Of a stretch of 64,000 bases of DNA, positions 1-11,957 are shown in pieces. How positions within the stretch are numbered: position 1 is the stretch's first letter; every line of letters begins with the position of its first letter. The notes below the pieces were generated by a model, which saw only the letters and a program-made list of their open reading frames with translations, was not told where the DNA came from and did no database searches. This stretch comes from an uncultured Acidobacteriota bacterium (GTDB lineage: Bacteria > Acidobacteriota > Thermoanaerobaculia > Multivoradales > SZUA-115). The stretch lies in contig CAWDVR010000004.1 in NCBI GenBank assembly GCA_963805975.1, forward strand, positions 512,001 to 576,000. Direction: 5' to 3'. The translations under genes and the position numbers were made by a program.

Positions 1-1
1 G

Positions 2-2236
2 GCGGGCCAGAACCGCATCGACGTCGACTTCGGCTACAAGCCGGCGACGCCGGTCTGCACCGCCGGCTACATGAAGGACACGTTCACGACGGCGAGCTTC
101 TCGAACAACGAAGGCACCCTGGCGTGGAGCGCCGCGTGGATCGAGAACGACGTCGCCGGCGCCGGTCCGGGCAGCGGCAATGTGACGGTGGGAACTCCGG
201 TATCCGGGTACCTGATCCTGCGCGACAGCCCGGACACCGGCACGCAGCCGAGCGCGGCGCGCGAGGCCAATCTCTCCGGCTTCGCCTCGGCGATGCTGTC
301 CTTCGATTTCCACATCCGTGGGGTCGAGACCGACGACGCGGCGGTGGTGGAGGTTTCGAACAATGGAGGCGCTTCCTACACCGTTCTCGAGACCTTCACC
401 GGCCTGACCGGGACGACCATCAGCTCGCGCAGCTACGACATCACGGCATACAAGGCGAGCAATACGCGGATCCGGTTCCGGATCAGCAACCTGTACGGCG
501 GCGATGACGATTTCTTCAAGCTCGACCTGGTCCGTATCGACGCCACCTGCGTGCCGCCGCAGACCGGTTCGGTCGGTGACCGGGTTTGGAAGGACAGTGA
601 CGGCGATGGCATCCAGGACGGCGGCGAGCCGGGGATCAACGGCGTCACCGTCCAGTTGCTGAATTCGGGAGGCACGGTCGTCGCGACGCAGGTGACCAGC
701 GGCAACGGAAACTATCTGTTCAGCGGCCTCAACGCCGGGACCTATTCGGTGCGTGTCGTTTCGAGCACCGTGCCGGCTGGCTACTCGCAGACCTACGACC
801 TCGACGGCACGGGCAGCGCCCACATCGCCAGCTTCTCGCTGGGCGCGGGACAGAATCGCACCGACGTCGACTTCGGCTATCGCCCGGCGCCAGTCTGCAC
901 CGCCGGCTACCTGAAGGACACGTTCACGACGGCGGGCTTCTCGAACAACGAGGGCACGCTGAATTTCAACGGCTCGTGGATCGAATACGACGTGGCGGGA
1001 GCGGGTGCGAGTAGCGGCAACGTGACGGTGGGAACTCCGGTCGCCGGGTACATGATCCTGCGCGACAGCCCGGACACCGGGACGCAGCCGAGTGTGGCGC
1101 GCGAGGCCAATCTCTCCGGCTTCGCCTCGGCGACGTTGTCCTTCGACTTCCACATCCGTGGAGTCGAGGCCGACGACGCGGCGGTGGTGGAAGTTTCGAA
1201 CAACGGGGGAGCTTCCTACACCGTGCTCGAGACCTTCACCGGCTACACCGGCACCACGATCAGCTCGCGGAGCTACGACATCACGGCGTACAAGGCGACC
1301 AATACGCGAATCCGGTTCCGGATCAGCAACCTGTACGGCGGCGATGACGACTTCTTCAAGCTCGATGTGGTGCGCATCGACGCCGCTTGCGTGCCTCAGA
1401 CTGGATCGGTCGGCGACCGGGTGTGGAAGGACAGCGACGGCGACGGCGTCCAGGACAGCGGCGAGACGGGCCTCAACGGGGTTACCGTCGAGCTGCTGAA
1501 CTCGGGCGGCACGGTGATCGCCACCCAAGTGACGAGCGGCAACGGCAACTACCTGTTCAGCGGCCTCGCCGCCGGCACCTACAAGGTACGGGTCAAGTCG
1601 ACCACGGTGCCGTCGGGCTACACCCAGACCTACGACCTGGACGGCACCGGCACGGCGCACCTCGCGACGTTCACGCTGGCGGCGGGACAGAACCGCACCG
1701 ACGTGGACTTCGGCTACAAGCCAGCGCCGGCGTGCACGGCGGGTTACTTCAAGGACAACTTCGGCACCGCCAGCTTCTCGAACAACGACGGCACGCTGAG
1801 CTGGTCGGCGGCGTGGGTCGAGTCCGACAGCGCCGGCGCGGGAGTGAGCAGCGGCAACGTCACGGTGGGGACGCCGTACAGCGGCTATCTGATCCTGGAC
1901 GACAATCCGGACACTGGCACGCAGCCGAGCGCGGCGCGCCAAGCGAACCTCTCCGGCTTCGTCACCGCGACGCTCAAGTTCGACTTCCACACCACCGGCG
2001 GTACCGACGCGGACGACGCCGCGGTCATCGAGGTGTCGAACAATGGCGGCGCGTCCTACACCGTGCTGCAGACCATTACCGGACTGACGGGCACGAACGT
2101 CGGCTCGAAGACCTTCAACATCTCGGCCTACATCTCGAGCAACACGCGGATCCGGTTCCGGATCAGCGCCAACTATGGGGCCGCGGACGAGATGTTCAAG
2201 GTGGACACGGTGCGGATCGACACCACTTGTCCGTGA
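2..2236 (+). CDS. Large extracellular repeat protein (5'-truncated): SdrD B-like domains alternating with Cys-flanked beta-sandwich modules
   Basis: Frame open from position 2 (AGQNRIDVDFGY...). Two GSVGDRVWKDSDGDG(I/V)QDxGExG(I/L)NGVTVxLL...NGNYLFSGLxAGTY...DVDFGY SdrD_B-type units and three ~160-aa beta-rich modules. Confidence 0.85.
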   Translation, partial: AGQNRIDVDFGYKPATPVCTAGYMKDTFTTASFSNNEGTLAWSAAWIENDVAGAGPGSGNVTVGTPVSGYLILRDSPDTGTQPSAAREANLSGFASAMLSFDFHIRGVETDDAAVVEVSNNGGASYTVLETFTGLTGTTISSRSYDITAYKASNTRIRFRISNLYGGDDDFFKLDLVRIDATCVPPQTGSVGDRVWKDSDGDGIQDGGEPGINGVTVQLLNSGGTVVATQVTSGNGNYLFSGLNAGTYSVRVVSSTVPAGYSQTYDLDGTGSAHIASFSLGAGQNRTDVDFGYRPAPVCTAGYLKDTFTTAGFSNNEGTLNFNGSWIEYDVAGAGASSGNVTVGTPVAGYMILRDSPDTGTQPSVAREANLSGFASATLSFDFHIRGVEADDAAVVEVSNNGGASYTVLETFTGYTGTTISSRSYDITAYKATNTRIRFRISNLYGGDDDFFKLDVVRIDAACVPQTGSVGDRVWKDSDGDGVQDSGETGLNGVTVELLNSGGTVIATQVTSGNGNYLFSGLAAGTYKVRVKSTTVPSGYTQTYDLDGTGTAHLATFTLAAGQNRTDVDFGYKPAPACTAGYFKDNFGTASFSNNDGTLSWSAAWVESDSAGAGVSSGNVTVGTPYSGYLILDDNPDTGTQPSAARQANLSGFVTATLKFDFHTTGGTDADDAAVIEVSNNGGASYTVLQTITGLTGTNVGSKTFNISAYISSNTRIRFRISANYGAADEMFKVDTVRIDTTCP
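53..2233 (+). repeat. Intragenic tandem repeat, ~840-bp (280-aa) unit, about 2.6 copies in the window
   Basis: Units begin near 53, 893 and 1730 (tgcac(c/g)gc(c/g)ggNtac, CTAGY). Units 1 and 2 are near-identical at nucleotide level; unit 3 is more diverged. Confidence 0.9.
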
Positions 2237-2248
2237 TTGGGTGTCTGT

Positions 2249-2545
2249 ATGTCCAGCGTGAAGGAGCCGACGATCTTGGGACAGTTGACCATCCCGCCCT
2301 CTGTTCTCTTCCGAGACCTGGGCGGGGAGGCCGTGCTGCTGGAGCTCGAGACCGGCTGCTACTTCGGGCTCGACGAGATCGGGACCCGCATCTGGCGGCT
2401 GATCGAGAAGCACGGTGAGCTGCCGCGCGTGGAGCGCGAGCTGCTGGAGGCCTACGAGGTGTCGCCGGACCATCTGGCCGGCGACCTCTCCGCCTTCGTC
2501 CGCTCGCTGGTCTCGCGCGGCCTGCTGAGGGCCCATGAAGCGTAG
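2249..2545 (+). CDS. PqqD-family RiPP recognition element (lasso B1/E protein)
   Basis: FRDLGGEAVLLELETGCYFGLDEIGTRIWRLI...YEV...DL..FV..L...GLL is the typical PqqD/RRE pattern; it overlaps the B2 gene. Confidence 0.92.
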   Translation: MSSVKEPTILGQLTIPPSVLFRDLGGEAVLLELETGCYFGLDEIGTRIWRLIEKHGELPRVERELLEAYEVSPDHLAGDLSAFVRSLVSRGLLRAHEA

Positions 2546-2963
2546 AGCCCGCGCCTTCTTCTCGCTGGCGAGCGAAGAGCGAGACGTCCTCCTCGAAGCC
2601 TGGTGCCTCCTGCTGCTGGCGGATCTCGCCCTGCGCTGGCTGCCCTGGAGGCGGGTCGAGGGGCTGCTTGCACCCGCGCAGGGCTCCAGTCGTCTGACGC
2701 TGCTCTCGCCGGCACGGCTCGCCACGCTGGTCGAGATCGCGGCCCGGCACCATCTGGTTCCCATGACCTGCCTGCGGCGCGCGCTGGTGCTGCGCCGGCT
2801 GCTCTCGCGGACGGGCTCGAGCGGGGCCCTGAGACTCGGCGTCCGCCGCGAAGCGAACGAGCTCCTGGCCCATGCCTGGGTGGAAGTGGGCGAGCGGCCG
2901 CTGGGGGATGATCCTCAGGTAGCCCTCCGCTTTGCCCCCCTCCTGCCCGCTCACAGCGCGTGA
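2535..2963 (+). CDS. Lasso peptide leader peptidase B2 (transglutaminase-like)
   Basis: TCLRRALVL...LRLGVR...AHAWVE gives the Cys-His-acid catalytic motifs of lasso B2 proteins. Confidence 0.93.
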   Translation: MKRRARAFFSLASEERDVLLEAWCLLLLADLALRWLPWRRVEGLLAPAQGSSRLTLLSPARLATLVEIAARHHLVPMTCLRRALVLRRLLSRTGSSGALRLGVRREANELLAHAWVEVGERPLGDDPQVALRFAPLLPAHSA

Positions 2964-3051: not shown

Positions 3052-3152
3052 ACCGGCGGTCTGCGAGCCGGCGGTATCCGTTCAGGCTGGCTACGAGTCG
3101 CTCTGTAGAGACTAGAGAGATGAAGCTCCAGCGGCCCGACCTGAGAGACACC

Positions 3153-3341
3153 ATGAGAGAACACGAGAAAGCGAATCAGGAAGGCGGTGGCACGCGGTCT
3201 TCCGTGCCCGCGGGCGAGCGGCCGCCGCGGCGCGCCTACAGCCCGCCCCAGCTCGTGGTCTATGGCACTCTTTCCGACCTGACCCAGGCCTTGGGCGTCC
3301 TTGGCCGCGACGGGTTGGCCGGCTCTCGTCCCCGTACCTGA
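3153..3341 (+). CDS. Lasso peptide precursor (leader ...AYSPPQLVVYGTLSDLTQ; core ALGVLGRDGLAGSRPRT); alternative start at 3120
   Basis: YxxPxL leader motif, downstream Gly, Thr at -2, small residue at +1 and Asp at core position 8; lies between B2 and cyclase. Confidence 0.92.
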   Translation: MREHEKANQEGGGTRSSVPAGERPPRRAYSPPQLVVYGTLSDLTQALGVLGRDGLAGSRPRT

Positions 3342-3367: not shown

Positions 3368-5149
3368 TTGCCAGGGTCCCTGCCACGGCAGCCTCCGCTG
3401 GCGGAGGGCGCCACGGCGGGCGGCTCCCACCCGCTGTCGCACGCGTGGCTGATCACCTGGGATCCGCACCATAATCGAGTCCGGGTAGGCTCCTCCGAGC
3501 CGTCGAGCCCCACTGCCGCGGATGCCACCTGCCTGTGGTGCGCAGGCTGGGTGGCGAATCGACCGGCGTTGAGCGCGAGGACCGGCCTCCCCCTCACGGC
3601 GACCGCTCGCGAGCTGGTGCCGGCGCTCTACGCCCGCGAGGGGCCCGAGGCGGCGCGGCAGATCGCCGGTGACCTGGCCTGGGTGCTGTGGGACCCTCGG
3701 CAGCGGCTTCTCTTCGCCTGCCGCGACCGGCTCGGAAGCCATCGCCTCCTCTACCGGGTGGTGGCCGACCAGATCCTGCTCTCTGGAAGCGTCGGGCCAC
3801 TCCTCTCCGACCCTCTCGTCCCTGGTCCGGGCTCGACGATCAATCTCTCGGCGCTCGTGGCGCACGTGCAGGGTGACGCGCTGCCGCCCGGGGAGACTTT
3901 CTTCAGCTCGATCCAGGCCGTCGAGCCGGCGACCTGCGTGACCTTCGGCGGCACGGCCGAGATCCGCCGGCGCTACTTCTGCCTGGCTGCCCAACCGCTG
4001 CTCGAGCTGCACAGCGACGCCGAGTATGCGGAGGCCTTCCGCGACCGGCTGCGGGAAGTGGTCGCGGACCATGCCGAGCCGGGACCCCTGGGCCTCACGC
4101 TGTCGAGCGGGCTCGACTCGACCTCGATCGCCGTCGCGCTCTCCGAGCTCGGCCGGGCCTCCGACGTGACCGCCATCACCTGGGTGACCCCGGGGCTGCC
4201 GGCGGCGGACGAGAGCGCGGGCGCCCGGGCGGTGGTGAGCCGTACCGGCCTCGGGCACCTGGAGATCCCGGCCGATCGACACTGGCCGCTGGCGACCGGC
4301 ATGGAGCTGGAGCCCCCCGCGGAGGGGCCGCCGCTGACGCTGTTCGGCGGGCTCTGGGACGTCACCTACGCGCTGGCTCGCGAGCGGCGGATCTCTTCCC
4401 TGTGGACTGGCCTGGGGGGGGACCATCTCTTCGGCGGGAACGTCTTCTCTTACCCGGATCTCCTGCTCACCGGCCGTTGGCTCGCGCTCGCGAGGCAGCT
4501 CCGGGACCATCTGCCGCGCTCGGAGTTCCGGCCCGCGGAGGTGCTGCGGTCGATGATCGTTTCCCCGATCCTCCGCTCCTACATGCCTCTGCCGCGCTTC
4601 CGCCGGGTCCCGACCGTGCCCTGGCTCACGGCCAAGGGGCTGGCCCTCTACCGCCCGCAGCGGCCCACCGCTCCGCGGCGGCTCCTGCCCGGCCGGCGCC
4701 AGCGGTTCGAGGCCCTCACCGAAGCGGCCCTGCCGCGGCTGGTGGAGGACCAGGCGGCCGCGGCGGCGCGCCATGGCGTGACTCTGCGGCATCCCCTGCT
4801 CGATCCGCGCCTGCTCGAGCTCGCGGCGAGCCTGCCCACCGACCAGAGCTTCCGCGCGGCTCGCCGCAAGGGGATCATGGTGCGCGCCATGCGCGGCCGG
4901 CTGCCCGACGAAATCCTCGACCGGCACGATAAGATTTATCCCACCGCGCTCGCCGAGCGCGGCCTCAAGGAGCGGGAGACGAAGAAGGTCTGGAGCCTGA
5001 TGGACAATCCGCGGCTCGGCGATCTGGGCCTGATCGAACCCGCCTCCTGGCGGCAGGCCTATCGGCTCTACCTCGATGGCCGCGAGGACTCCGACATGTT
5101 CTGGCACACCCTCACCGCGGAAGCCTGGCTGCGGCTGCACGGCGGCTGA
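3368..5149 (+). CDS. Lasso cyclase (asparagine synthetase-like protein C)
   Basis: RDRLG, LSSGLDST PP-loop, GLGGDHLFGG and RHPLLDPRLLE motifs; no N-terminal catalytic Cys of a true AsnB. Start codon uncertain. Confidence 0.9.
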   Translation: MPGSLPRQPPLAEGATAGGSHPLSHAWLITWDPHHNRVRVGSSEPSSPTAADATCLWCAGWVANRPALSARTGLPLTATARELVPALYAREGPEAARQIAGDLAWVLWDPRQRLLFACRDRLGSHRLLYRVVADQILLSGSVGPLLSDPLVPGPGSTINLSALVAHVQGDALPPGETFFSSIQAVEPATCVTFGGTAEIRRRYFCLAAQPLLELHSDAEYAEAFRDRLREVVADHAEPGPLGLTLSSGLDSTSIAVALSELGRASDVTAITWVTPGLPAADESAGARAVVSRTGLGHLEIPADRHWPLATGMELEPPAEGPPLTLFGGLWDVTYALARERRISSLWTGLGGDHLFGGNVFSYPDLLLTGRWLALARQLRDHLPRSEFRPAEVLRSMIVSPILRSYMPLPRFRRVPTVPWLTAKGLALYRPQRPTAPRRLLPGRRQRFEALTEAALPRLVEDQAAAAARHGVTLRHPLLDPRLLELAASLPTDQSFRAARRKGIMVRAMRGRLPDEILDRHDKIYPTALAERGLKERETKKVWSLMDNPRLGDLGLIEPASWRQAYRLYLDGREDSDMFWHTLTAEAWLRLHGG

Positions 5150-5151
5150 GG

Positions 5152-6360
5152 ATGAGCACACTGACGCGCGCCACTCTCCTCGCCAGGAAGCCTGACCTGG
5201 AGCTCCGCCTCGATGCCAGGAACCAGGTCGCGGTGATGGTCGGCGGCGAGGCCGTGCCCTGCGGCCCCTACGGACTGGCCGTTCTGGAGGCGTTCTCGCG
5301 GCCTGCCACTCTCGACGAGGCATTGCGCCGGGTGCAGGCCCGTGGCGCCCAGGACTGGATGGACCTCACCAGCGTCGTCGTGCGTCTCTACGAGGCCGGG
5401 GTGCTCCTCGACGGCGAGCGCGGCAAGCCGGCGCCAGAGAGGCGCTCCGGCTTTGCGAGCTGGTCGGTCCACGTCAAGATGCTCAACGACCGGGTGCGCA
5501 CGGCCAGCTACCTGAGGGCGATCGCGGAAACGGTGCGACCGGGCGACGTGGTGGTCGACATCGGCACGGGCACCGGGGTGCTGGCGGTGGCCGCGGCCCG
5601 TGCCGGGGCGCGGCAGGTGTTTGCCGTCGAGGCTTCCGGCATTGCCACGGTGGCCCGCGAGGTCTTCGCGAGGAGCGGCGTGGGCGATCGGATCACGCTG
5701 GTCGAAAGCTGGTCCACGCAAGCCGAGCTTCCGGAGCCGGCGGACGTGATCGTGAGCGAGATCATTGGCAACGATCCTTTCGGGGAACGGGTCCTGGAGG
5801 TGCTCGCTGATGCCCGGAGGCGGTTGGCCCGGCCCGGCGCGCGCTCGGTTCCCCGCCGCTTGCGGGTCTACGTCCTGCCGGTGACGGTCCCGGAAGAAGA
5901 GCTGGTGCGCCGCATGGGGAGCGAGGCGACCCTCGCCCGCTGGCGCTCCTGGTACGACCTCGACCTCTCCCCGCTCGCTCTGCTGGCAGAGCAGTCGGAA
6001 GAGCCGCTTTTCTTTATCCGCCCGCAGAAGGCGAGCCTCTGGCCGGCGCTCGCCGAGCCGGCGCTGGTGGCGAACGTGGACCTCGAAGCCGAGCCGCCCG
6101 GCGTGCTGGACACGACCGCGGAGGTCACGGTCACGGCTCCCGGCCTCCTGAGCGGCCTGCTGATGTACTTCGAGCTCGATCTCAGCCCCACGGTCACGTT
6201 CTCCACTCATCCCGCCCGGGTCGAGGAGGCCGGCTGCTGGCGGAGCCCCGTGTGGGTCCCTGCCCGGCGGCGGCGCTACGAGCCCGGCGAGCGTCTCTCC
6301 CTCCGCTTCGAGTATGGGCATGCCTCCCGCTGGACGCGGTTGACCCTTCTTCCCGCGTAG
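5152..6360 (+). CDS. SAM-dependent methyltransferase of the protein arginine methyltransferase (PRMT) type with an N-terminal wHTH/RRE-like domain
   Basis: HVKMLNDRVRTASY, VVDIGTGTG, VFAVEAS, double-E loop SEIIGNDPFGE and C-terminal barrel motifs YFELDL...FSTHP...CWRSPV. Confidence 0.82.
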   Translation: MSTLTRATLLARKPDLELRLDARNQVAVMVGGEAVPCGPYGLAVLEAFSRPATLDEALRRVQARGAQDWMDLTSVVVRLYEAGVLLDGERGKPAPERRSGFASWSVHVKMLNDRVRTASYLRAIAETVRPGDVVVDIGTGTGVLAVAAARAGARQVFAVEASGIATVAREVFARSGVGDRITLVESWSTQAELPEPADVIVSEIIGNDPFGERVLEVLADARRRLARPGARSVPRRLRVYVLPVTVPEEELVRRMGSEATLARWRSWYDLDLSPLALLAEQSEEPLFFIRPQKASLWPALAEPALVANVDLEAEPPGVLDTTAEVTVTAPGLLSGLLMYFELDLSPTVTFSTHPARVEEAGCWRSPVWVPARRRRYEPGERLSLRFEYGHASRWTRLTLLPA

Positions 6361-6369
6361 GGCCCCAGC

Positions 6370-7401
6370 TTGCAGCCTCCGAGCGCAACCGCCGGCCTCG
6401 GGCACGAGACCTACCGGGTCTTCGGGCAGACCCTCGCCACGAGCTTTCCGCTCGCGAACGTGCTCGCCTCCGGCCACGGCCCGGTCGATTTGGTCTTCTC
6501 CTGCACGGACCAACCCCCGAGCGAGGTGGACGACGCGGCGTTCGAGCCCTTCTATCAAAGCCCCGAGCGTACGGGCTCGGGAGAAGCGGTCTGCAGTCTG
6601 GCTCGCTTTCCCGGGGCTCGCCTCGTCGAGTGGGAGAGGCTGGGCTTCCCGCAGGTGGCCGACTTCTACTATCTCGGCCCGGCCCGGATTCACGCCCGAA
6701 GGCTCGCCGGCGGGAACGATGCCGAGATCGAGCAGTGCCTGCTCGGGCCGGTCCTCTCCTACTGGCTCGAGCAGAGGGGAATCCTCGCGTTACACGCCTC
6801 AGCGGTGGAGGTGGGGGGCGAGGCGATTGCCTTCCTCGCCGCCGGCGGCACCGGGAAGACGTCGCTGGCCGCGGCCTTCCTCGCAGAGGGGGACGCCCTG
6901 GTCACGGACGACGTGCTGGCCCTCCAGCCCGCTGCACGAGGATTTCTGGCGCTTCCCGGCTACCCGCAGCTCAAGCTCTGGCCGGATCTCGCCCGGCAGC
7001 TCTTCGGTGAGCGTTCGGCCCTGCCGCGCGTGCTTCCGGGGGTCGAGAAGCTGCGCGCCCCGGTGGGGGCCGGCTTCGGGCGGTTCTGTCACCAAACGCT
7101 GCCGCTGACCGCGCTCTACCTGCTCGAACGGCGACCCGAGGACGCGGGCCGCGACGGCCGCGTGGTTCCGGTCGCCTCACGAGACGCCCTGATCGAGCTC
7201 GTCCGGCACTCGTTCTCGCCCCGCCTGGCGGAGGCGACCCAACTCCAGGAGCGCCGCCTCACGCAGTTCGCCCGCCTGCTGCGGGAGGTTCCAGTCCGGC
7301 GTCTGCTGGTGCCCTCGGCTCTCGAGCTCCTGCCGCGGGTGGCCGAGGCGGTGCGGCGGGACCTCAGCCTGCCGCGAGGGAACCCTTCTCCTCGAGAATG
7401 A
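6370..7401 (+). CDS. HPr kinase-like lasso peptide kinase
   Basis: LHASAV, Walker A AAGGTGKTS, LVTDD and PGYPQLKLW motifs; last gene of the lasso cluster. Confidence 0.85.
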   Translation: MQPPSATAGLGHETYRVFGQTLATSFPLANVLASGHGPVDLVFSCTDQPPSEVDDAAFEPFYQSPERTGSGEAVCSLARFPGARLVEWERLGFPQVADFYYLGPARIHARRLAGGNDAEIEQCLLGPVLSYWLEQRGILALHASAVEVGGEAIAFLAAGGTGKTSLAAAFLAEGDALVTDDVLALQPAARGFLALPGYPQLKLWPDLARQLFGERSALPRVLPGVEKLRAPVGAGFGRFCHQTLPLTALYLLERRPEDAGRDGRVVPVASRDALIELVRHSFSPRLAEATQLQERRLTQFARLLREVPVRRLLVPSALELLPRVAEAVRRDLSLPRGNPSPRE

Positions 7402-9703
7402 GACGGCGCCTCTCCCCCCGCTCCTCCGCGCCTGCCGCCTCTCCCTGGCGGTCGAGCTCGTCGAGCGCCGCCAGGGCCTGGTTGTAGTAGTGCCGGGCGG
7501 TGGCGGCGGCGAGCGGCCGCGCCTTCGCCGCCGCCATCCGCGAATACTCGAAAGCGCGGCCCCACATCCGGGCCTGCCCGAAGTGATAGGCCAAGAGCTC
7601 GCAGGCCTCGGCCCGATCCGCCGGCAGCCGGGCCTCGATCGCCTCGGCGATCCGCCGGTGGAGGATCTGGGCCCGTTCGGGGGAGAGGCTGGCGGCGATC
7701 GCCCTGCGGATGGAGGGGTGGGCGAACTCGAAAGTGCCGTGCCGTGCTCCCTGGACCCAGAGCGCCACGTCGCGCTGGCGGCGGCTGTCCGCCCAGTAGC
7801 GCAGGAAATGCCGCACCAGCCAGCGCTGCAGCATCATCTCGACACAGGTCTCGACCACGCCGCCGTCCTCCTGCTCGGCAGCTTCCAGGAGCTCGGCTTC
7901 GAACCGCTGGCCGATCAGGGAGGCCAGGGTGAGCAGGCGCCGGGTGGAGGAGGGCAGCCGGCGGATACGCCGCAGGACCAGATCCTCGTGGCGCGCGGGC
8001 AGGTGCGACCCGAGCTGCCCCCCGAATTGCTTGGGCACGGCCGTCAGGCGCCAGCTCTTGCCCTCCGGCACCAGGGCTCCCTCGTCCCACAGCAGGTTGA
8101 TCCATTCGGTAAGGAGCAGCGGGGCGCCTTCGGTGGCAGCGAACAGGAACCGCGCCAGGGTGGCGCTGCCCTGCTTGCCGACCAGCGAGACGGCGATGCG
8201 GGCCACGCTCTCGGCCGAGAGGCGGTCGAGCGACAGGCGCCTGACGCGGCCTCGCGGCGCGCCGGCCGCGGCGAGGAGCTTCGCCAGGCCGCTCGACGCG
8301 GTCTCTTGCGGCCGGTAGGTCGCCACCACCCAGACCGGCAGGTCGGCGATCTCGGGGAGCAGCGCATGGAGCAGGTTGAAAGTGTCGTCGTCCATCCACT
8401 GCAGGTTGTCGAGAAAGAGGATCAGCGGGCGGGGTTTGCTCGCCGCGCCGGCGCCCGCTGTGACGTGATGGAAGAAGGCGCCGAGGGCGATGGCCAGGCG
8501 GCCGACCGGCAGCGGTGGCGGGTCGCCCGGCCTGGGGGCCAGCTCGGGCCGGAGCTCGCCGAGCTCCGGCACCAGCCGCGCAACGTCCGCCAGCGCGTCG
8601 CCCAACGGCAGACGGGTGATGCGCTCGGCGATCTCGACCTCGCTGGCGAGCGAGTTGCGGAGCGCCTCGATCAGCGGCTGGAAGGCGACCGGCGGCGCGA
8701 GATCGTAGCTGCGGCCGAGAAACACCGTCGCCCGCTCCCGGCTGGTGATCTCGTCGAGGACGGCGCGCACGAGGCGCGACTTGCCGATCCCCGCCTCGCC
8801 CTCCACCAGCGTCAGGCACCCCTGGCCGTCGCTCGCCGCGCGCCAGGTGTGGTGGAGGTGCTGGGACGCTTCCTCTCTTCCCACCAGCGGGATGAGGGGC
8901 CCGCGGGGAGCCGCCTTGTGCTCGCCACCGGCGAGCGCCGGCAGGCTCTCGTCGAGGATCTGCCGGTGGAGCTGGCGGGTCTCCTCCATCGGCTCGACGC
9001 CCAGCTCCCTGCCGAGCAGGCGCTCGAAGCTCTCGTAGTCCTCGAGCGCCCGGCTGCGGCGGCCGGTGTAGGCATAGAGCAGCATGAGCTGGCGGTGCAC
9101 CTCCTCCGACAGCGGGTCGATGCGCAGCAACTGCCGCGCGTACTGGATGCCGAACACGTGGCCGCCGGAACGCAGATGGTGCGCCACCAGGGCACGCAGG
9201 GCGGCGACGGCGGACTCGCGCAGGCGTTCCTGCTCGGCGAGCATCCATTCCTCGAACGGTGGGCTGTCGGAGAGAAAGAAGCCGGCCAGGAAGTCGCCGC
9301 GGTAGAGCTGCGCCGCCCGCGCCAGCTCCCGCGGGTCGGCGACGTCGCCGTCGCCCCAGCCGCGGTCGATCGCCTCCGAGAAGGCATGGAGATCGACCCA
9401 GCAGTGCTCGCCCGGTGCGAAGCGGATGCTGCCCTGCTCGGCGGAGATCAGTGGCGGGGCGCCCTCCGGCACCTGCAGCACCGCGCGCAGGTTGTAGAGG
9501 GCCTGGCGCAGGTTCTGGCGGGCCGCCGTTTCGCCGTGGTGAGGCCAGAACAGGCCCGCCAACTGGTCGCGGCTGAAGGCCCGCCCGGGGTGGGCGGCGA
9601 GGTAGGCGATGAGCGCGCGGGCGCGCTGCGACTCGAAGCGGACCACCCGGCGCGAACCGGAGATCTCGAGTTCCCCCAGCAGGCGGATGTCGAGGCGGGT
9701 CAT
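7364..9703 (-). CDS. SARP-family (OmpR-type HTH + BTAD) transcriptional regulator with AAA ATPase domain
   Basis: IRLLGELEI...SRDQLAGLFWP...ARQNLRQALYNLR; LYRGDFLAG; DPLSEEVHRQLM; Walker A GEAGIGKS; Walker B FLDNLQW. ATG at 9703 preferred. Confidence 0.9.
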   Translation of the reverse strand: MTRLDIRLLGELEISGSRRVVRFESQRARALIAYLAAHPGRAFSRDQLAGLFWPHHGETAARQNLRQALYNLRAVLQVPEGAPPLISAEQGSIRFAPGEHCWVDLHAFSEAIDRGWGDGDVADPRELARAAQLYRGDFLAGFFLSDSPPFEEWMLAEQERLRESAVAALRALVAHHLRSGGHVFGIQYARQLLRIDPLSEEVHRQLMLLYAYTGRRSRALEDYESFERLLGRELGVEPMEETRQLHRQILDESLPALAGGEHKAAPRGPLIPLVGREEASQHLHHTWRAASDGQGCLTLVEGEAGIGKSRLVRAVLDEITSRERATVFLGRSYDLAPPVAFQPLIEALRNSLASEVEIAERITRLPLGDALADVARLVPELGELRPELAPRPGDPPPLPVGRLAIALGAFFHHVTAGAGAASKPRPLILFLDNLQWMDDDTFNLLHALLPEIADLPVWVVATYRPQETASSGLAKLLAAAGAPRGRVRRLSLDRLSAESVARIAVSLVGKQGSATLARFLFAATEGAPLLLTEWINLLWDEGALVPEGKSWRLTAVPKQFGGQLGSHLPARHEDLVLRRIRRLPSSTRRLLTLASLIGQRFEAELLEAAEQEDGGVVETCVEMMLQRWLVRHFLRYWADSRRQRDVALWVQGARHGTFEFAHPSIRRAIAASLSPERAQILHRRIAEAIEARLPADRAEACELLAYHFGQARMWGRAFEYSRMAAAKARPLAAATARHYYNQALAALDELDRQGEAAGAEERGERRRLILEEKGSLAAG

Positions 9704-9938: not shown

Positions 9939-10229
9939 GTGAACATCCGTCCCCTGAACGACCGTGTCGTGGTCAAGCGCATCGAGGCCCAGGAAGAGGT
10001 CCGTGGCGGCATCATCATCCCGGACACCGCTAAGGAGAAGCCGCAGGAGGCCGAGGTCATCGCGGTCGGCCCCGGCAAGCTCAACGACGACGGCAAGCGG
10101 GTGCCGATCGACGTCAAGGCCGGCGACCGCGTCCTGATCGGCAAGTACTCGGGCAGCGAGATCAAGGTCGGCGAGAACGACTACGTGATCCTGCGCGAGG
10201 ACGAGATCCTGGCCGTCGTCGAGAAGTAG
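9939..10229 (+). CDS. groES: Co-chaperonin GroES
   Basis: [12 protein letters not shown]...[14 protein letters not shown]; RBS AAGGAGG. Confidence 0.99.

Positions 10230-11957
<1,728 letters not shown>

Follow-up and report, generated by a model that had tools for sequence, protein, structure and literature searches.

What does a methyltransferase with the motifs of eukaryotic protein arginine methyltransferases (PRMTs) do inside a bacterial lasso peptide operon, and on what substrate does it act? The question is raised by a 64,000-nucleotide stretch of DNA from an uncultured Acidobacteriota bacterium, referred to here as the window, in which one strand (+) carries, in this order, genes for B1, B2, A, C, the methyltransferase and a kinase. 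The lasso B1 protein (2249..2545), a stand-alone RiPP recognition element (RRE) of the PqqD family, matches PF05402 (E 6.8e-16, above the cut-off) and NF033536 (E 8e-14, below it), and is followed by the B2 leader peptidase (2535..2963; PF13471, E 3.8e-20; NF033537, 64 bits against a cut-off of 33), the precursor A (3153..3341, with an alternative start at 3120; NF033521, 24 bits against a cut-off of 19; translation) and the asparagine-synthetase-like lasso cyclase C (3368..5149, start codon uncertain; PF00733, E 2.9e-33), which lies below the NCBIfam lasso-specific cut-offs (NF033535, E 1e-42). The methyltransferase gene (5152..6360) sits between the cyclase gene, whose stop lies 2 bp before its start, and, after a 9-bp gap, the gene for an HPr-kinase-like peptide kinase (6370..7401). 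The kinase is putatively of the paeninodin tailoring type, on the strength of two weak matches below cut-off (TIGR04352, E 7e-6; PF07475, E 0.009), and its homologues recur next to lasso genes in other loci.

The cluster, known from its genes alone, has B1, B2 and the cyclase, a YxxPxL leader, T(-2), and an Asp or Glu at positions 7-9 of the core. The leader motif, YSPPQL..YG.LSDLT, lies at 3237-3284. Since the T(-2) rule sets the boundary of a lasso core, the core is placed at 3288-3338; these 17 residues are predicted to form an Ala1-Asp8 ring and contain one arginine in the ring (Arg7), two in the tail (Arg14 and Arg16, R-P-R) and no His or Lys. Its C-terminus is Arg-Thr and its sole Ser is residue 13, which leaves the kinase without a C-terminal Ser like that of paeninodin, the residue that the paeninodin kinase phosphorylates (available text of PMC13352647). 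There is no transporter inside the cluster, and scans for promoters, terminators and repeats gave nothing over chance.

On either side of the cluster the genes are of other kinds. A secreted SdrD_B repeat protein of ~1,700 aa is encoded upstream on the same strand (window 1-2236; its gene starts ~3 kb upstream of the window, at L274:14032) and ends 12 bp before B1; we left it out of the system because no homologue was found in the 80 genome loci. Downstream, the gene for a SARP/BTAD-AAA regulator (7364-9700, -) converges on the kinase gene and overlaps its 3' end, and a BTAD regulator also follows the methyltransferase in locus L003. The groES-groEL operon at 9939-11957, recognised by translation, is ordinary.

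The methyltransferase ORF (5152-6360, +) is intact and encodes 402 aa, and the PRMT1-family motifs quoted in an earlier, sequence-only reading of this DNA are all present: an HxxMLxDxxRT-type motif (H107-VKMLNDRVRTASY), motif I (V134-VDIGTGTG), a double-E loop at D198-VIVSEIIGNDPFGE with E203 (nt 5758-5760) and E212 (nt 5785-5787) in the claimed E-x8-E spacing, and the barrel-region motifs Y339-FELDL, F350-STHP and G361-CWRSPV (GCW at nt 6232-6240). The motif R78-LYEAGVL, quoted there as the end of the N-terminal domain, is found as well. Alignments to PRMT6, PRMT1, PRMT8 and PRMT7 place a Rossmann SAM-binding domain at 5449..5856 (+), with HxxMLxDxxRT, motif I, post-I (E160), motif II, the double-E loop and motif III. 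It is followed at 5857..6357 (+) by a dimerisation-arm region, in which W264 and Y268 are invariant, and a beta-barrel with the THW-equivalent loop G361-C362-W363, assigned from profile alignment to the PRMT1/8 arm and THW loop, from conservation, and from a below-cut-off match to PF22528 (E 1.8e-4). Measured against the six PRMT motifs given in the available text of PMC12153873, the Rossmann motifs I, post-I, II and III among them, all can be located except the His of THW.

Several comparisons converge on the PRMT fold. In a phmmer search against the PDB, 76 sequences matched at E<=1e-3; all 60 of those listed are PRMT entries, with PRMT6 the best (2e-23). A family profile made from 118 of the 120 closest homologues (606 were found) covers the whole PRMT core, arm and THW loop included (E 4e-46 to 2e-35), and aligns WRSWYDLDLS with the PRMT1/8 arm and the GCW loop with THW. 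In both sequence and profile alignments E203 and E212 fall on the double-E residues of PRMT6, PRMT1 and PRMT7, and both are retained in 117 of the best 120 of the 606 homologues. In the AF2 model (pLDDT 93.7, pTM 0.86) a C-terminal beta-barrel and dimerisation arm are predicted, and its closest PDB match is T. brucei PRMT7 (E 3e-23), with PRMT3, PRMT6 and PRMT1 almost equal; target-normalised TM values for single-module PRMTs are 0.67-0.84 over 316-370 aligned columns. The barrel on which the PRMT assignment of the earlier reading turned is thus seen in the predicted model, and the profile alignment agrees. Members of the family that share both the N-terminal domain and the PRMT core, which we call the long form, are mostly annotated as PrmA or hypothetical; we rejected PrmA (PF06325, TIGR00406) for the window enzyme, its match being limited to the SAM-binding strands and the TIGR score 39 bits against a cut-off of 183.

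Residues 1-90 (5152..5421, +) had been likened to a PqqD-like winged helix, and the likeness is borne out by the predicted fold, by the structure rankings and by a profile match to B1. A model built from 44 sequences (pLDDT 88.5) has strands at 17-20, 26-30 and 33-36 and helices at 38-47, 54-61 and 66-81, which gives the three-strand sheet followed by three helices of an RRE winged helix, with two short extra strands at 9-12 and 85-87. When the domain was compared with 48,161 chains by VIA-align, the top four matches were RREs; MccB scored Z 10.4 (rmsd 2.0, 78 aligned), TigE 9.1, and MibB and PbtF 8.4 each, with the non-RiPP enzymes MINA53 (8.2), Rickettsia PKMT2 (8.1) and Rv2067c (7.6) close behind. 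Foldseek also put a PqqD structure first (5sxy, E 0.01), with TigE and PbtF among the leading matches and none at E<=0.001. The N-domain profile aligns end to end with that of 14 lasso B1 proteins (hhalign probability 89%, 89 columns), scoring 36.1 where 100 block shuffles reached at most 21.1. A Pfam and NCBIfam scan of the 44 N-domains gave no significant RRE model (Pfam PqqD in 2/44, best E 0.039; NCBIfam none), a result that we treat as low sensitivity rather than absence; the available text of the RRE-Finder preprint describes 1,050 methyltransferase hits treated as false positives (10.1101/2020.03.14.992123). The RRE-like fold is, at the level of predicted structure, supported, and we regard as confirmed, with both folds taken from models, that the gene is real and intact and that it encodes, within a lasso operon, a PRMT-fold enzyme carrying an RRE-like domain.

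Arginine is not implied by the PRMT fold alone, because TsaG, an enzyme of the same architecture, methylates histidine. According to the available text of the report on thiostreptamide S4, gene deletion showed that TsaG bis-N-methylates His12; its action comes late, once the macrocycle has formed (bioRxiv 2020.12.17.423248). Enzymes of the type studied here occur in thioamitide-type clusters at 5 of 80 GTDB loci. In one of these, L017, the genes follow the tsa order (APH, HopA1, flavoprotein, methyltransferase, YcaO, TfuA, PhyH, papain-family protease, second methyltransferase) and the core matches residues S1, A5, T8, Y11, H12 and C13 as numbered in the available part of that report; the L017 enzyme, which stands in for TsaG in our comparison with orthology judged by gene context, shares 35% identity with the window enzyme across 394 aa that take in the N-domain (E 3e-78). 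Bacteria are therefore already known to have a RiPP methyltransferase of the PRMT fold, one whose substrate is not arginine. The thioamitide-like cluster at L043:4378-12053 has a precursor, a kinase, a flavoprotein and a D..M methyltransferase, with no YcaO/TfuA pair among the gene calls after the methyltransferase.

The active sites of the two groups differ at the residues that hold the arginine guanidinium in PRMTs. In all five thioamitide-type homologues the double-E loop carries D..M instead of E..E (register confirmed against PRMT6), and all five of their cores are Arg-free and end in His-Cys. In our trees, which are quick trees, these enzymes form one clade (SH-aLRT 99) nested within the long-form E..E family, and a grouping of the E..E enzymes as one clade without them was rejected (AU p 0.012; 27 rows, a quick tree and a group named post hoc). 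When PRMTs and short E..E forms serve as outgroups, E..E seems to be the ancestral state, and we infer that histidine methylation is probably derived. The active-site residues would track the substrate, D..M going with His cores and E..E with Arg cores, a pattern in the sequences that argues for arginine at the window enzyme.

The window enzyme might instead methylate its precursor at a group other than arginine; the candidates are a leader His, a carboxylate, the N-terminal amine once freed, and a phosphate added by the kinase. The histidine-specific TsaG is an earlier change of substrate among PRMT-fold RiPP enzymes, the THW His is missing here, and carboxylates are the targets of known lasso methyltransferases (available text of PMC13352647). 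However, each substrate change seen in our set coincides with loss of the double-E, which the window enzyme keeps; ring closure consumes the N-terminal amine; and His is present in only 3 of the 22 cores found beside long E..E enzymes. We consider methylation at such a group improbable, and methylation of arginine remains the reading that we carry forward.

The cores encoded beside these enzymes bear on the choice. Arginine occurs in all 22 cores beside long E..E enzymes and in 16 of 22 control cores (Fisher p 0.011; the sets are unmatched, with controls from a single phylum and test cores from many, and related rows are not independent), and makes up 10.4% of residues in the former versus 6.0% in the latter. 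Its position is not conserved; it is present in the tail in 19/22 cores and confined to the ring in 3/22. Controls were drawn from 100 of the 118 B2 matches in 401 same-phylum genomes, 30 of which yielded a precursor, and none of the control genomes has a long-form match at E<1e-98. Four loci whose precursors all contain Arg were lost at the ring-acid filter (L007, L011, L106 and L050), one was removed as a spurious match (L006), and six precursors were added by eye (L010, L018, L039, L045, L060 and L102, that of L039 lying 4 kb from the enzyme). By hand calculation, p is ~0.03 without the six added precursors and ~0.04 after removal of two Arg-free controls with partial methyltransferase matches (L164 and L216). 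The association is modest, with Arg found in ~73% of the control cores too, and because the sets are unmatched and kin not independent we take the count as supporting rather than decisive.

Other forms of the enzyme give a graded picture. All five cores beside short E..E enzymes contain Arg (2-5 each), the core beside the single lasso-linked long form with the second Glu changed to Gln (L125) is Arg-free, and of 8 cores from lasso loci whose sole form is the short DLRG one, 1 contains Arg; beside a short DQ form that lacks both Glu, Arg occurs in 3 of 5. The DLRG form belongs to a second, short PRMT-fold family in lasso clusters, with a DLRGxLP loop, no N-domain and no Trp loop, which accompanies Arg-poor, Lys/Met-rich cores; it occurs alone in L068, L079, L177, L183, L187, L199 and L250 and beside the long form in L002, L005, L018, L029 and L090. 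The third short form (DQxG loop) is found in lasso clusters L053, L056, L228, L251 and L261, where three of the five cores end in Cys-Leu.

The arginine substrate named in the sequence-only reading is therefore kept in part. The intact double-E and the Arg in all linked cores speak for it indirectly, and the appeal to the fold has to be given up, the nearest characterised homologue, TsaG, being a histidine methylase; the DQ form, which has lost both Glu and still accompanies Arg cores, also counts against arginine. Taken together, the sequence comparisons make it probable, in our judgement, that the enzyme methylates Arg of its cognate lasso peptide.

The long-form family is not only a lasso enzyme, since neither lasso nor thioamitide genes are present at 23 of its 46 genome loci, and this keeps alive the alternative that the window enzyme is a general bacterial protein arginine methyltransferase with another protein substrate, merely riding along with the lasso cluster. 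Lasso-type genes lie near 18 of the 46 and thioamitide-type genes near 5; of the others, 16 fall in an actinobacterial clade that lacks RiPP genes, and no clear partner is seen at 7. With metagenome loci included, lasso genes lie near 34 of 104 E..E long forms, many of the DNA stretches being short. The actinobacterial clade (40 rows, SH-aLRT 100) consists of the same enzyme with E..E and an SSW loop, and a gene for a small SHOCT protein lies within 2.5 kb in 13 of its 16 genome loci and in 23 loci overall (L013, L019, L020, L023, L026-L028, L030, L032, L033, L035-L037, L114, L115, L121, L126, L130, L133, L135, L137-L139). Most of these SHOCT proteins start with an Arg-rich stretch, MGxVRRRxRRRT, and are candidates for a non-RiPP substrate of a bacterial PRMT, or the arrangement may be just conserved synteny.

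The window enzyme, however, lies outside the actinobacterial clade, its nearest rows in the tree are mostly lasso-linked (L084, L001), its gene is tightly packed inside the operon, and some of the orphans adjoin lasso-type accessory genes (that of L015 follows an NTP_transf_5 gene). Within the same phylum, 7 of 401 genomes have a long-form match at E<1e-98, four of them from one family, and B2 is present in 7/7 versus 101/401 overall, lying within 8 kb of the methyltransferase in only 4/7 (window included). Another protein substrate seems to us about as improbable as a non-arginine group, and we return to arginine of the lasso peptide.

In the mechanism that we propose, the target would be a guanidino nitrogen of Arg in the cluster's own precursor. 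SAM would be held in the Rossmann domain by motif I and E160, the guanidinium would be gripped and positioned against the W363 loop by E203 and E212 in the PRMT manner, and the W264/Y268 arm would mediate a PRMT-type dimer. The predicted cleft between strand 3 and helix 3 of the N-domain would take the YxxPxL leader; binding of the leader there would put methylation on the linear precursor, ahead of B2 cleavage and Ala1-Asp8 ring closure, and the tail Arg14-Pro-Arg16 would be the likelier site.

Guidance by the leader is the less secure part of this proposal. The cluster already has a stand-alone B1, which counts against the N-domain as leader reader, as do the comparable structural scores of non-RiPP enzymes, the absence of a significant PqqD model match and the many homologues with no RiPP genes close by. 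Strand 3, the would-be leader-pairing strand, is poorly conserved among homologues, and residue 71, aligned to a commonly acidic position in B1 helix 3, is uninformative (D/E in 25/38 lasso-linked, 4/5 thioamitide and 24/49 other rows). Arg of the same lasso peptide might instead be methylated without the leader, with the N-domain structural or vestigial and the finished lasso or an exposed tail as a possible substrate. The N-domain is retained whether the partner is a thioamitide leader, a SHOCT protein or absent, which would fit such independence, as would the late action of TsaG and the requirement of LihM-type methylation for a threaded lasso (available text of PMC13352647). It would also fit three loci (L197, L201, L202) in which short E..E enzymes without an N-domain stand beside very Arg-rich lasso precursors, often two per locus; these would be good test cases for leader-independent Arg methylation. 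Against it stand the full RRE topology of the N-domain, its end-to-end alignment with lasso B1, and the linear precursor as substrate of many lasso tailoring steps (available text of PMC13352647). We hold leader-free methylation to be unlikely, if less so than the alternatives weighed above, and give Arg methylation guided by the leader through the putative RRE somewhat under an even chance.

The GCW loop had been offered as a pointer to a mono- versus dimethyl product, and in this the family comparison gives no backing. The THW loop with His of type I PRMTs is replaced here by G361-C362-W363, and of these three positions only the Trp is conserved, in 115 of the 120 closest of 606 homologues. 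Among these 120 the loop reads, for example, NHW in 38, CSW in 36, CHW in 9, NSW in 7, SSW in 6 and GCW in the window protein alone; with a loop so variable, the product type is not readable from GCW. The THW His is not known from PRMT9 or PRMT5 either. We lean toward monomethyl-Arg at roughly even chances, with dimethyl forms as possible products. The hints toward monomethylation are the missing THW His, PRMT7 narrowly leading the fold matches, and a tail whose R-X-R resembles the PRMT7 preference (available text of PMC13689401); dimethylation stays possible because TsaG adds two methyls.

The genome from which the window comes has one copy of the enzyme. Locus L082 has two tandem methyltransferase genes; in a tandem second copy (L082; P0057, P0067, P0119) the double-E loop reads D..E and the Trp loop is degenerate. 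Such a copy is possibly one half of a PRMT enzyme/prozyme-like pair, or has a changed product type.

More broadly, the long forms might represent an ancestral, widespread bacterial PRMT family in which a fused RRE directs the writing of methylarginine on lasso peptides, with TsaG/TvaG as a derived D..M branch and an actinobacterial branch that methylates an Arg-rich SHOCT protein, a picture that we put forward as speculative and, in its entirety, doubtful. If the mechanism proposed for the window enzyme holds, side-chain methylarginine would be added to lasso chemistry, peptides could be given methyl-Arg by an enzyme programmed through the leader, the origin of the thioamitide His methylase would be explained, and the study of product specificity would gain a small PRMT of bacterial origin, a single chain whose THW loop varies naturally (NHW, CSW, SSW, GCW). 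The available text of a June 2026 review lists citrulline, phosphate, acetyl, aspartimide and C-terminal methyl among lasso modifications, with Arg methylation absent from it (PMC13352647). Our literature search, which reached few subscription journals and part of the supplements, found neither Arg methylation of a lasso peptide nor the PRMT-fold long-form family outside thioamitides.

How, then, does the enzyme compare with known systems? With the eukaryotic PRMTs (PRMT7 of type III; PRMT1, 3, 6, 8 and CARM1 of type I; PRMT9) it shares the Rossmann domain, arm and beta-barrel and the motifs HxxMLxDxxRT, I, post-I, II, III, E-x8-E and the THW Trp, at 19-26% identity in structural alignments; unlike them it is bacterial, has an RRE-like N-domain, lacks the His in the THW loop and is encoded in a RiPP operon. 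The YFxxY helix, a feature of type I PRMTs, is reduced to one Phe. Kinase-bearing lasso clusters of the paeninodin type likewise have B1, B2, a YxxPxL precursor, a cyclase and an HPr-kinase-like gene, and differ from the window cluster in its extra PRMT-fold gene, its core end (Arg-Thr) and the lack of a transporter within it. The known lasso methyltransferases, the lassomycin-like C-terminal carboxyl methyltransferase and the aspartimide-forming LihM type, are also SAM-dependent tailoring enzymes in lasso clusters, but they act on carboxylates (available text of PMC13352647), and the window enzyme is set apart from them, as they are described, by its PRMT matches in the PDB, its barrel and its RRE-like domain. 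Closest is the TsaG/TvaG type (PF06325), homologous over the full length through N-domain and PRMT core. There the double-E loop reads D..M, the HxxMLxDxxRT motif ends in RK and the loop is xHW, in contrast to E..E, RT and GCW here, and the partner is a YcaO-TfuA cluster with a His-Cys core rather than a lasso precursor whose core has no His. On these sequence comparisons, the window enzyme is best described as one of the TsaG/TvaG kind with what appears to be the ancestral, Arg-type active site.
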